Origin: Octopus vulgaris
Lineage: Eukaryota
DNA length: 64,000 nt
Direction of reading: 5' to 3'
Assembly (NCBI GenBank): GCA_951406725.2
Contig: OX597834.1
Location: 37,634,001 to 37,698,000 of the forward strand
The notes beneath the pieces were generated by a model that saw only the letters and a program-made list of their open reading frames with translations, made no database searches and had not been told where the DNA came from. Made by a program: the position numbers and the translations under genes. Each line of letters opens with the position of its first letter. The stretch's first letter is position 1. This document shows positions 14,726 through 56,370 of this stretch, one piece after another.

Positions 14726-14819
14726 AAAGATGATTTTGTAACATACTGTTATTGTTTTTGCTGATTAAATTTCAACTAAATATAACATTTGAGCACTTGT
14801 TTTCTTTATTCAAAACTCA

Positions 14820-15712
14820 GCCACGATCACAAGTTATGTCGATGATACAAAAGTCTCACAGGTAATACAGAATCCTGAAGACACTATGCACCTGCAATGT
14901 GAGCTGAATGAAATATACAAGTGGACTGAAAAGAATAACATGCAGTTTAATGCTGAAAAGTTTCAAGCCTTGTGCTATCAGCATGCAAAACTAAAGGCAA
15001 TATCCATTCAATACACTGGACCTGGAGGGATTGCAATCCCAGAAGCACAGTCAGTGCGAGACCTGGGTATTTACATGAGTAATGATACATCCTTCCATGT
15101 GCATGTTGCTAAATTGGCAATGAAATGCAGGCGGCTGACCGGATGGATTCTTAGAACTTTGAAAACAAGAAATCAGGAAACCATGATGGTTCTCTGGAGG
15201 ACACTTGTCCTAAGCCACTTTGACTATTGCTCTCCGCTATGGTCACCAACCAGTGTCAAATTAATCTACGAAGATGATAGCCTCTATGCAGCATATAAGC
15301 TACTGGGAAAGACTCAAGAGATTAAAACTCTATTCCTTAGGGCGTAGGCGAGAAAGATATGCAATAATAAACATCTGGAAGATCATGGAAAGAATTATCC
15401 CAAGCTTTGGCATCGAGAGTTACACAAATACTAGAACTGGGCGCCACTGCATAGTGACAAGGACTCCAAATTTGCCATCAATATATAGGACAAGATACTG
15501 CAATAGCCAAAGCTTCAGGGGTCCACAGCTCCTCAATATTCTCCCGAAGGTATCTTCAAAATTAAGATGGACATCTTACTGTCAAGTGTCCCAGATGAGC
15601 CAACCTCGCAACAGGAAGTGCAGTAGAGGGCATTCGTTAAATAAAATTAGGTAGCAACACCAAATGGCGGTGCCCCAGCATGGCCACAGTTCGTGAGCTG
15701 AAACTAGATACA
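14820..15712 (+). mobile_element. CR1/L2-group LINE, 3' RT fragment (frameshifted) with 3' tail
   Basis: SYVDDTKV (YADD), W..KNNMQFNAEKF, VRDLG, LVLSHFDYCSPLWSP, SYWERLKRLKLYSL.RRRER; ends GGCGGTGCCCCAGCATGGCCACAG. Confidence 0.92.
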
Positions 15713-19239: not shown

Positions 19240-19780
19240 AAAGTGAAAGTGTTCTTTAAGTTAAATATAATTACATATAACATATATTTACTGATTTATC
19301 CTGTCATTTTTTATGGTGTTTTATTAGTTTAATCACTGGTTTTGTTCAATGTTGTGCTGTGCTTACAAGTGAAATAAGATATGGAGATATGAGTGGTTGC
19401 ATTCTATCAACGATTTCAAGGTCATTTTATCATCGTATCTGTGCGTGGTAATATCATTTAAAAGGTTTCGTTCCGATTTCTTATAAGTGCTGGCTATAGA
19501 ATTAGATAAGAATATGTGATATAGAGTTTCGCTAATTTTATTCACTTTCTTGTATTAGCTGAATCTACGAAGATTGTATGCTTCGTTTTGTTTTGTTCTT
19601 TTTCCACATCAGTAATTTTGCTTTCAAATTCCTGAGAAAGTTATTGTTAAATTTTATGAATTTGACGTTCCTAATTAACAAAAAAAAAAAATCCTTTCTT
19701 CAAAAGGTTGGAGTATTTATTAAAAAGGTGGGGCATTTCGCGTAGGTGGTATCTATGTATGTTTAAAATATTGTTCTTGT
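19240..19780 (-). pseudogene. Decayed Penelope-like (Naiad-type) element ORF, region N-terminal to RT
   Basis: Minus translation LIRNVKFIKFNNNF.RNLK and TIFVDSANTRKVNKISETLYHIFLSNSIASTYKKS resemble PLE motifs ADKT..Y..LL...IT.TYKK. Confidence 0.6.
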
Positions 19781-19948
19781 AGGTATAATTGTCAAACAAG
19801 AATGAGAATCAAGTTAGAATTTTCATAATAAATTGATTGGCATGAAACACTGAAGCTGAAATAAAATATTTCAGACACAGAATGTCAACAATCTTGGTAA
19901 AATTGCCATACACGCACACTGTCACACACTCATGCACACACAAAAATG

Positions 19949-20005
<57 letters not shown>

Positions 20006-20007
<2 letters not shown>

Positions 20008-20357
20008 GCTCAGTGTGAGCAATCATCTGAAAGTTTTTTGTGCATTTTTATGTTGACATAAGTTCCTTGCTTTTCCTGATGAGAAAGCGGCATAATGCAC
20101 CCCTTATTCCTTCGCAATTAGGAATATGCAGCCTTCGAAACATATGTCGAAAATAAAGGAATTTTGTTAATTCGTCGTTCAGCTCCATTTTTTCATATAT
20201 TTATATTTTCAAAATAAACATACAAATTTCCACACGAAAGCACGTAATCTATGCCCTAGGCACGTAACTTCAACCGTGTTTTTTTTAATGTGAATTTGCT
20301 ACCCAGGTATCGGTTAATTCGAATTATCCTTAATAAGATAATTCATTCAACTACTCA
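20006..20357 (+). mobile_element. (TA)n-embedded non-autonomous PLE-like element
   Basis: Sharp boundaries with TA tracts on both sides; carries a canonical hammerhead. Confidence 0.7.
20071..20153 (+). ncRNA. Type-I hammerhead ribozyme motif (canonical core)
   Basis: TTTTC-CTGATGA-GAAAG...CCTTC-GAAA-CATATG-TC-GAAAA; palindromic stem III, GUC triplet. Confidence 0.85.
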
Positions 20358-20719
20358 ATATATATATATATATATATGTGCATATGTGTGTGTGTTTGTG
20401 TGCATGTCATTTATTTAGGATGATCTGGGTCAGTTTAAAACTGATACACACAGCTCTAGTATTGAGTACTTCCAGTACAGTTATCCTCTTCGTTATAACA
20501 GCCGTATATGTACATTCACATATATCTATGTGTGTGTATGATGCCTTAACCTCCTACACTTCGGACTTACTACTGCCTGAACTTTCTGCACATCTCATCT
20601 ACATACCAGCAATCCACTGAGTTTACCATTCGATTTACTAATGGATTCCACTGGACTTTTCCGTTGATTAAAAATCGATCCAATACATCACGGCGTTTGA
20701 ACCTTTCTGGACTATTTTG

Positions 20720-20886
20720 AATTTTCTGTTTTTTCTTACTCTATTTATTTTCGTGTGTTCCTTTCCGTTGAAGAGCGTATGCTCGAAACATAAAAGACTT
20801 TCTCACTTTCCAGAGCGTCAAACTAATATACCCGCTTGTTGTTCATACACCTACCTTCGTCTTTTGTTTTTCTAAAAATTTCAACT
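20720..20886 (+). mobile_element. TA-tailed PLE-like element family B, with hammerhead-like motif at 20761-20796
   Basis: Homologous to 38727-38897 and 39256-39472; CTTT-CCGTTGA-A-GAGC-GTAT-GCTC-GAAA-CA-TA-AAAG. Confidence 0.7.
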
Positions 20887-21017
20887 ATATATATATATAT
20901 ATACACACATTCACGTCAAGCAAACATATAAACAAACCTACATATACATAAATATATAAAGGGATATATGTAAATATATTTTGTAATATGATATATATAT
21001 TATAAATATACATACAT

Positions 21018-21227
21018 ACTCTTTTACTCTTTTGCTTGTTTCAGTCATTTGACTGCGGCCATGCTGGAGCACCGCCTTTAGTCGAGCAAATCGACCCCGG
21101 GACTTATTCTTTGTAAGCCCGGTACTTATTCTATCGGTCTCTTCTGCCGAACCGCTAAGTGACGGGGACGTAACCACACCAGCATCAGTTGTTAAGCAAT
21201 GCTAGGGGGACAAACACAGACACACAA

Positions 21228-21260
<33 letters not shown>

Positions 21261-21400
21261 CATATATACGACAGGCTTCTTTCAGTTTCCGGCCCGAGGT
21301 TATAGCAGAAGACACTTGCCCAAGATGCCACGCAGTGGGACTGAACCCGGAACCATGTGGTTGGTTAGCAAGCTACTTACCACACAGCCACTCCCGCGCC
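21018..21400 (-). mobile_element. CORE-type SINE, family 2
   Basis: Head to (AAAAGAGT)n tail. Confidence 0.9.
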
Positions 21401-21551
21401 TATACATACATATATATATATATATAATACTTATATGTATATATTATACTACATATATATCTATATATCTTCATATATATATATATATATATATTATACA
21501 TATGTAGTATATATATAAATATATATGTATATATAATATAACATATATGTG

Positions 21552-37382: not shown

Positions 37383-37774
37383 ATTCTACGTTTAATCCTC
37401 CATGTTTAGTGGTGTGAAGATTATGACGTCATAAAGTTTAATTCTGCACGTCCAGTAGCGTGAAGATTGTGACGTCATAATGTTTAATTCTATTTTTAAG
37501 AATGTGAAGATTGCGACATCATAACGTTTACTTCTATATGATTAGTGGTCTGCAGACTGTGACGTCATAATGTTTAATTCTACATGTTTAGTGGAGTGAT
37601 CATTGACATCATAACGCTTAATTCTCCATGTTTTGTAGTGCGAAGATTGTGACGTCATAAACTGTAACCCTTCATATTTGTTGAGATGGAGATTGTGTCA
37701 TTAGAATTTTTAATCCTACATCTTTAGAGGTGTGAAGGTTATGACATGTGAAGGTTCAATTCTACATATTTATT

Positions 37775-38726: not shown

Positions 38727-38897
38727 AGTCGCCATGATAGATCGTTAGCCACTACACACATTTTTTTCTCTCCTTGTTTCTTTCTGTAGAAGAGCGTAGG
38801 CTCGAAACGTAAAAGACTTTTTCTATTCCTGAGCGTTATACTAATACATCTGTTTGTTTTGTACACCACCTGCCTTCGTCTTTTGGTTTTTTTTCGT
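38727..38897 (+). mobile_element. PLE-like element family B, with hammerhead-like motif at 38779-38816
   Basis: TCTTT-CTGTAGA-A-GAGC-GTAG-GCTC-GAAA-CG-TA-AAAGA. Confidence 0.75.
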
Positions 38898-39040: not shown

Positions 39041-39237
39041 AAGTTAATCCAAACAAGAAAGCACAAAAAAACCCCACAACAACGCGAGAACGTGGAACAA
39101 ATATAGTATTATTGGACGCTCAGGAAAGAAGGAAAGATGGAGGGTTTAACGTTTCGAGCGGAGCTCTTCGTCGGAAACATAGGAGAAGGAAAGATCCAGA
39201 GAAGGGAAGACAGAGGAAAAAAATCGCCAACGGTATA
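39041..39237 (-). mobile_element. TA-flanked PLE-like element family A, with hammerhead motif at 39144-39178
   Basis: GTTT-CCGACGA-A-GAGC-TCC-GCTC-GAAA-CG-TT-AAAC on minus strand; terminal stub repeated at 6679-6716. Confidence 0.75.
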
Positions 39238-39255
39238 CGAAAGGATATATATATA

Positions 39256-39470
39256 GGGGGAGAGTTTACGAAAAAACAAAAGACGAAGACAGGTGGTGTA
39301 CAAAACAAACAGATGTATTAGTATAACGCTCAGGAATAGAAAAAGTCTTTTACGTTTCGAGCCTACGCTCTTCTACAGAAAGGGACACAGAAAAAAACAA
39401 GGAAGAAACAAGGAGAGAAAAAAAAAGAAGTGAAAAAATGAGTGTAGTGGCTACCAATCTATCATGGAGA

Positions 39471-39472
<2 letters not shown>
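39256..39472 (-). mobile_element. PLE-like element family B (inverted copy), hammerhead-like motif at 39347-39382
   Basis: Near-identical reverse complement of 38727-38897; TA tracts on both sides. Confidence 0.75.
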
Positions 39473-39516
<44 letters not shown>

Positions 39517-53842: not shown

Positions 53843-54051
53843 AGGGCTACGGCTGGAGTCGATGGCACGTAGATTGCCGGTGTAGGGGACGGCTGGAGTC
53901 GATGGCACGTAGATTGCCGGTGTAGAGGGAACGGGAGGGGACGGCTGGAGTCGATTGCACGTAGATTGCCGGTGTAGAGGGAACGGGAGGGGACGGCTGG
54001 AGTCGATTGCACGTAGATTGCCGGTGTAGAGGGGACGGTGTAGAGGGGACG
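53843..54051. repeat. GC-rich minisatellite (~40-52-bp unit GGGGACGGCTGGAGTCGAT(T/G)GCACGTAGATTGCCGGTGTAG)
   Basis: Four near-identical units. Confidence 0.9.
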
Positions 54052-55699: not shown

Positions 55700-56370
55700 A
55701 TAAAAAGAACACAAACGGAGTCTAAAATTTACGTCTAAATTTTAAACCTCATTCGTCTTCTTATATAATATGTCACTCGAGATTTCGATCGAGAAATTTT
55801 CTGATTCAAGATGCACCTCGATCTGGTCGGCCATCTGAGATTAACAGCGAAACCTTCCCCTGTTATACGAGCAGGATGATTGCAGATACACTCTGAATAT
55901 CTGAACCGAGTGTTCAAAACCATCAGCATTAATTGGTCAGCAGGCTAGATGTTCGAGTCCCGCATCAATTGAACGAGGTAAACTTCACCCAAAGGATTTC
56001 CAAATTCGTTACAGACACGTAAAAGAAATTACATTTTTCTGAAGAAAAGGTAAGAAGGACGGTAAAGGGACCGTCCATAATAATGCGAAACGCAAACGAT
56101 CGTGGCGGAAGCGCAGCGAGTTACCACAAAAAATCTTCAAAGGAAAACTTCAGCAGAACGAGGTAATGCTTTCAATTTGGTGGGATTGCAAGGGGCGTTG
56201 TCTTTTGAAAGCTTCTCTTCACGGACAGGGCCATCAATTCTGGTGTGCACTCGGACCAGCTGCACAAATTAAATGCAGAAACGTCCAGCACATGCTAATT
56301 GTATGAATATTGTCTTTTCTCACGGCAATGCCCGACTACACACTTCTTTTGCAGAGGACAAAATATGCCC
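55700..56370 (+). pseudogene. Decayed mariner transposase
   Basis: LVSRLDVRVPHQLNE (WVPHEL), HNNAKRKRSW, VMLSIWWDCKG, FSHGNARLHTS (HDNARPH). Confidence 0.85.

Follow-up and report, generated by a model that had tools for sequence, protein, structure and literature searches.

We take the 352-bp sequence at 20006-20357 of the window (the whole 64-kb stretch of DNA that was analysed) to be an aged member of a very abundant family of non-coding repeats with a complete type I hammerhead motif, likely the terminal repeat, or pseudo-LTR (pLTR), of a Penelope-like element (PLE) or a short non-autonomous derivative of one. This reading draws on the motif itself, the abundance and diversity of its family, the boundaries of the copy, the pattern of variants and the inverted joints between copies; from these we infer the parent element, cleavage and use of the dimer. 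Hammerheads and Penelope-like elements are a well-known pairing. The repeat would work like a PLE-type hammerhead, with cleavage predicted from its sequence. In the mechanism we propose, the RNA would be copied into (TA)n microsatellites by a reverse transcriptase and a GIY-YIG nuclease of Penelope type that are encoded elsewhere, and the ends left behind would mostly be truncated at 5′, with an inverted junction now and then. Functional family members would process element RNA by hammerhead cleavage of the transcript after the counterpart of C20148; this would probably go best when two copies, paired through an 8-nt palindrome, form a double hammerhead. The class is not new, since hammerheads in Penelope-like elements have been described in many animals and once in octopus; new here are a family of seemingly thousands of copies or more under four organism labels, and an unusually long helix II. 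The features of the copy are collected in Table 1.

Table 1. Features of the hammerhead-bearing repeat and its flanks, in window coordinates
Feature	Position	Strand	Remarks
(TA)28 left flank	19949..20005	.	likely the target microsatellite
Repeat copy	20006..20357	+	high-copy non-coding interspersed repeat, 352 bp, GC 0.35, between (TA)n runs
Stem I, 5′ strand	20053..20075	+	proximal 20071-75; distal 20053-68
Catalytic core CUGAUGA (C3-A9)	20076..20082	+	CTGATGA in DNA; none of the 40 variant rows listed (59 in total) falls here
Long stem II	20083..20136	+	10 of 12 pairs; distal 7-bp hairpin 20105-20126
GAAA, stem III and predicted cleavage site	20137..20148	+	GAAA 20137-20140; palindromic stem III ACATATGT; predicted cut after C20148
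Stem I, 3′ strand	20149..20170	+	
First-unit tail and AT-rich linker	20171..20209	+	tail resembles the element's 3′ end; lowest internal depth bin 20193-20209
Second unit	20210..20357	+	own tail ending at (TA)n run; many pieces begin at 20204-20223
Second hammerhead-like motif	20285..20342	+	only with family majority letters at 20285 and 20287; no stem I found
(TA)n right flank	20358..20378	.	

The perfect core reported in the initial annotation is present, with CTGATGA at 20076-20082, GAAA at 20137-20140, T20147 as U16.1 and C20148 as C17, as is the GUC (20146-20148) with its predicted cut after C20148. The hammerhead consensus is C3 U4 G5 A6 N7 G8 A9, G12 A13 A14 A15.1 and U16.1 H17 (PMC3088659). 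All pairs adjacent to the core form, namely G20149-C20075 (1.1-2.1), G20083-C20136 (10.1-11.1) and A20140-U20147 (15.1-16.1), and core and pairs together agree with the acceptance criteria given in PMC3088659. The open end lies in stem I, which is the type I topology, and judged by its letters the motif is a type I hammerhead. Stem I is as first described, with five of five proximal pairs (20071-75/20149-53), a 2x2 internal loop and then TTCCTT/AAGGAA (20063-68/20156-61), and it extends nine further pairs, out to 20053/20170. The palindromic stem III also holds up: it is the 8-nt palindrome ACATATGT at 20140-47, which gives 2 bp and a tetraloop in the monomer and 8 bp between two copies. A strict hammerhead descriptor run on both strands of the 64 kb matched only once, at the 20076-20148 motif, and 20053-20170 folds with z = -4.3.

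Two parts of the initial description had to be given up. Stem II (20083-94/20125-36, with mismatches A86xC133 and G89xA130) had been called branched; this was rejected because the TATTCC/GGAATA hairpin (20105-11/20120-26) lies in line beyond a one-sided bulge, leaving the stem unbranched, and the hairpin competes with stem II for 20125-26. Nor is the hammerhead canonical, since helix II has 10-12 bp instead of ~4 bp, it has no loop that could dock on loop I, and no hammerhead match came from Rfam. At gathering score Rfam matched nothing in the whole 64-kb window, and at E up to 10 it gave 39 matches in 19500-21500, none of them a ribozyme.

The stretch at 20006-20357 had been described as a TA-flanked element of about 350 bp. 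The (TA)n runs on both sides are there and read depth stops at the right boundary, but TA flanking alone means little: TA runs are dense in the window (150 runs, with 23 gaps of 150-500 bp between them), so the flanks are weak evidence by themselves and were rejected as proof of an element. Summed depth in the DNA run X1 was 7,000-1,100,000 across 20006-20362, 0 at 20363-20430 and 12-26 at 20431-20481 (three of nine flank bins), and the right boundary is sharp, with X1 depth ending near 20357. The left end is less certain, because the first 30 letters are common to other copies, which then run on; loose ends before 20035, of which the first 30 letters were read, continue for a median of 30-221 letters. 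No second copy of 20006-20357 was found in the 64-kb window, and the repeat yields neither a coding frame of 120 aa nor a match to Pfam. The window as a whole is AT-rich DNA of animal type with a high density of microsatellites and interspersed repeats, and its short interspersed repeats suggest an octopus. It also holds a mariner-type transposase fragment at 56043-56303 (+) (Transposase_1, E 3e-9) and minisatellites at 37390-37772 (46 bp, 8.4 copies) and 53884-54038 (52 bp, 3 copies, 98% matches).

Parts of the repeat are present in 20 of 24 listed public runs, from 10 studies and four organism labels. Variants and joints were analysed in four of those 20 runs (X1, X6, X9 and X18), using contigs matched to 20006-20500 at 80% likeness: 2,426, 463, 130 and 95 contigs, respectively, most of them 90-99% alike. 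The element is thus multi-copy, as first supposed, and the single-copy outcome that the initial annotation named as refuting did not occur. Across 20040-20345 the summed X1 depth was 98,600-1,112,000, giving a ratio to flank of 3.8e3 to 9.2e4, which is not a copy number and is inflated by overlapping contigs; this comparison used X1 alone, leaving out the flank cover of X6, X9 and X18. The family seems to number in the thousands of copies, or more, over the four organism labels. Along the unit, depth differs by a factor of about ten, a pattern suggestive of partial copies and sibling families and not of one uniform satellite. That there are several sibling families follows from diverged relatives (loose ends before 20050-20063 and 20133) in which the TATTCC/GGAATA hairpin persists but the loop and the 5′ sequences are different. 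The literature searched contains no description of this repeat family; Repbase and Dfam, which may list it, lay outside that search.

The variants listed, which are unphased, spare the catalytic parts. Among the 40 variant rows listed of 59, 17 variable positions fall in 20053-20170 and none on the 20 positions of the core, closing pairs and stem III (hypergeometric P = 0.033, for these unphased rows). In all four runs G at 20086 makes up 68-80% of depth and pairs with C20133, mending a stem II mismatch. Two-sided changes on pairs also occur: 20071 T>C with 20153 A>G would keep the pair, and 20087 G>A and 20132 C>T fall on the two sides of another (unphased). Variants at 20151 and 20124 give wobbles, and those at 20054, 20121 and 20158 break pairs unless a partner changes outside the 40 rows listed. 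At 17 of the 40 listed rows (59 in total) the window copy has another letter than the majority in X1, and it is therefore old. A family so large and diverse offers natural variation for testing selection on monomer versus dimer cleavage.

The energies of the predicted folds come from a secondary-structure model that leaves out core and tertiary energy. In all four contexts tried, the hammerhead fold of the window copy lies 8.3 kcal/mol above the predicted minimum, and the competing fold pairs 20069-74 with 20083-88 and 20134-38 with 20147-51; we reason that the G at 20086 would turn one pair of this competing helix into a wobble. A hand-built double hammerhead of two strands reaches -61.6 kcal/mol, against 2 x -24.9 kcal/mol for the monomers. 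The best two-strand fold of the window copy, at -74.6, is non-catalytic, and the dimer hammerhead lies 13 kcal/mol above it. The window copy is thus predicted to misfold mostly into a non-catalytic shape, and may well have lost its activity; energies that leave out core and tertiary terms point to weak rather than absent activity. Since this copy looks decayed, it would make a poor substrate for a cleavage assay.

Metazoan PLE hammerheads have a long helix II, a short proximal helix I and a small palindromic helix III (PMC4209133), and all these features are found in the repeat. Like the pLTR hammerheads described by Cervera and de la Pena (2014, PMC4209133), it combines type I topology, a full core and G10.1-C11.1 with a long helix II, a 5-bp proximal helix I and a small palindromic helix III suited to a dimer, and it occurs as many dispersed solo motifs. 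It differs from them (PMC4209133) in its longer helix II of 10-12 bp, its distal hairpin and a helix I that extends over ~20 bp, and in having neither an extra base between positions 9 and 10.1 nor an adjoining coding frame. G20083 follows directly on A20082 and is paired; the extra base is typical of minimal PLE hammerheads but is missing in several Hydra motifs too (PMC8557442).

Insertion into (TA)n and inverted junctions are PLE hallmarks (PMC8557442). The repeat has both, the (TA)n insertion being weak alone and inverted junctions making up four of six joints. These six joints, listed from the four runs, comprise four opposite-strand joints, two skips and no head-to-tail joint, each being a single contig of depth 5-67. 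Two of the 24 loose ends shown are reverse complements of the 20154-20200 tail, as compared by eye. In Hydra-1_oBim, a Hydra-clade PLE of Octopus bimaculoides that targets (TA)n, the hammerhead lies 104 nt from the 3′ end (PMC8557442); in the repeat the first core lies ~110 nt before the first tail. The likeness to Hydra-clade PLEs (Craig et al. 2021, PMC8557442) therefore covers (TA)n insertion, a hammerhead ~100 nt from the 3′ end, inverted junctions and occurrence in octopus, whereas the hammerhead sequence is another one and the Hydra helix III has 3-4 bp and is not the palindrome of the repeat. The Naiad and Neptune clades favour microsatellites too (PMC8557442), and 31 recently active Penelope-like families are given for Octopus vulgaris in PMC13282606, the available main text of which makes no mention of ribozymes. 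The role of the hammerhead in Penelope-like elements is described as still open (PMC8557442).

Among 137 frames of at least 70 aa in the window, Pfam found no GIY-YIG; eight frames had matches, and only the mariner transposase piece scored above its cut-off. No Penelope reverse transcriptase or GIY-YIG frame adjoins the repeat, the sole reverse-transcriptase-like match being a weak RVT_1 piece 4.6 kb away. This is a broken LINE-type reverse transcriptase fragment at 14793-15654 (+) (RVT_1, E 0.0004), which we take to be CR1/RTE-like and not Penelope-like. None of the contigs seen in the four runs connects the repeat with a coding region. Six family motifs were searched in the PLE consensus supplement of PMC8557442, and none was found in its available text, where line breaks can hide matches.

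The initial annotation placed the size of the element in the retrozyme/pLTR range. The pLTR half of that guess is favoured by the (TA)n site, the length of helix II, the palindrome in helix III and the inverted joints, while for the retrozyme half no tandem arrangement was seen. As an alternative, which we hold to be unlikely and yet the most serious, the repeat would be a dispersed monomer of a non-LTR retrozyme, whose master tandem arrays elsewhere would be transcribed and cut to units of ~350 nt; a host ligase would then close these into circles, and a PLE enzyme would insert them again. Its length of 352 bp, GC of 0.35 and lack of coding capacity fit retrozymes of 150-450 bp with GC under 50% (PMC7229834), a helix III of 2 bp and a tetraloop resembles the axolotl HHR_Amex2 (PMC7229834), and in other copies both units of the repeat are likewise joined. 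With the animal non-LTR retrozymes (Cervera and de la Pena 2020, PMC7229834; Li, Clavereau and Pollet 2026) the repeat shares a non-coding length of ~350 bp, GC under 50%, a type I hammerhead, high abundance in what is probably a mollusc and presumed PLE mobilisation. The traits that define retrozymes are tandem arrays and circles (PMC7229834), neither of which was observed here. None of the six joints in the four runs is head-to-tail, there is no second copy in the 64 kb, there is no canonical contact between loops I and II, and the predicted circle is not strongly self-paired. The whole 352-bp unit has a self-pairing z of -1.5, with six of 100 shuffles equally good, and folds to -65.1 as a circle against -70.0 when linear; the uneven depth along the unit likewise speaks against a uniform satellite. 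Tandem arrays may still exist elsewhere, as the contigs are short and joints with a TA spacer between copies would escape notice. The retrozyme and PLE readings also overlap, because retrozymes have been argued to derive from such pLTRs and to include solo monomers, which can make up any share of a family (bioRxiv 10.64898/2026.07.22.740005). In the available text of that work no mollusc is among the species sampled, and eight of nine predicted elements did not cleave.

Of the runs analysed, X9 and X18, which represent two organisms and two studies, are RNA only by guess; no run with part of the repeat is recorded as RNA. Their contigs carry no information on strand, level or circularity. Depth in both peaks at 20125-20158, the 3′ half of the hammerhead. 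In X9 and X18, 20158 G>A reaches 32% and 71% (against 0.1% in X1 and 4% in X6), 20154 T>C 12% and 19% (0 in X1 and X6), and 20124 A>G 12% and 16% (under 1% in X1 and X6). A sibling subfamily may thus be preferentially transcribed. A-to-I editing could account for 20124 A>G as well as 20154 T>C, but alleles can look alike. If the RNA-enriched sibling were circular it would be a cephalopod retrozyme, and none was found in the literature searched.

The repeat consists of two units. The first unit's tail, near 20171-20187, is similar to the 3′ end of the element (20343-20357), and two of the 32 pieces shown, both from X18, bridge position 20200 by at least 31 letters on each side, so the order of the units is common to other copies. 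We rejected the idea that the halves are diverged duplicates, as they give no significant alignment and 438 of 500 shuffles score as well; the second is read as a decayed or divergent unit. Its hammerhead-like motif has a core in which U replaces A9, a stem II with eight out of nine pairs formed, GAA and an 8-bp hairpin giving U15.1-A16.1, and the majority letters that give the core-like heptamer at 20285-91 make up 69-98% of depth. No stem I could be paired for 20285-20342, and the motif is probably not a ribozyme.

Two further alternatives would nevertheless give it a function. One, which we consider improbable, sees an array-free, retrozyme-like family of cephalopods, in which dispersed copies with a full and a variant-core (U9, U15.1-A16.1) hammerhead would free a circularisable 194-nt RNA, and in which a sibling subfamily sharing stem III would be the transcribed, possibly A-to-I-edited, active form. 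The other, quite improbable in our view, is a two-ribozyme unit in which the first hammerhead and the variant-core second one would cut at 20148 and 20342 and so free the 194-nt RNA from a single dispersed copy. The core-like heptamer, the well-paired stem II with its G-C base pair, the GAA and the 8-bp hairpin all speak for this second idea; a natural U15.1-A16.1 hammerhead exists that cleaves weakly (PMC3088659), and another repeat in the window has two hammerhead units in tandem. The U in place of A9, the swapped 15.1-16.1 pair, the unpaired stem I, the lack of significant similarity between the halves and the lack of an Rfam match count against it.

It is highly unlikely that the locus is a domesticated ribozyme regulating a host transcript, or that the repeat is moved by a non-Penelope enzyme. 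A perfect core has been kept at this locus and a LINE-like reverse transcriptase fragment lies in the window, but the family is very abundant, the copy differs from the majority at no fewer than 17 places, one of which weakens stem II, it is predicted to misfold, and no host gene was identified in the 64-kb window. The notion of a chance match is largely refuted already and deserves almost no credence, for although Rfam lends no support and chance core matches do arise in large collections, an order-3 Markov null gave a strict hammerhead match in only three of 300 sequences, and the variants of the family spare the core and keep the stems. Hammerhead pattern scans found no locus in viral contigs, and a family-specific pattern had no match in the prokaryote genomes scanned. 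Pattern matches in metagenome contigs (three loci with one shared sequence) had neither stem I nor stem II and were rejected as chance.

Other hammerhead-like motifs occur in the window outside the 352-bp repeat. A separate repeat family has minimal motifs at 20729-20886 (+), 38727-38891 (+), 39042-39475 (-) and 6686 (-), with stem II GAGC/GCTC, an extra base after position 9 and, in three of the four, an ACGT palindrome. The 39042-39475 copy contains a tandem of two hammerhead-like units, both of which end at TA, and forms an inverted pair with the 38727-38891 copy. The 20729-20886 copy, found ~370 bp downstream of the 352-bp repeat, likewise has a TTCAACT-like tail that precedes (TA)n. A degenerate motif at 44973-44935 (-) has A for C3, a 6-bp stem II, a palindromic AGCGCT stem III and no stem I.
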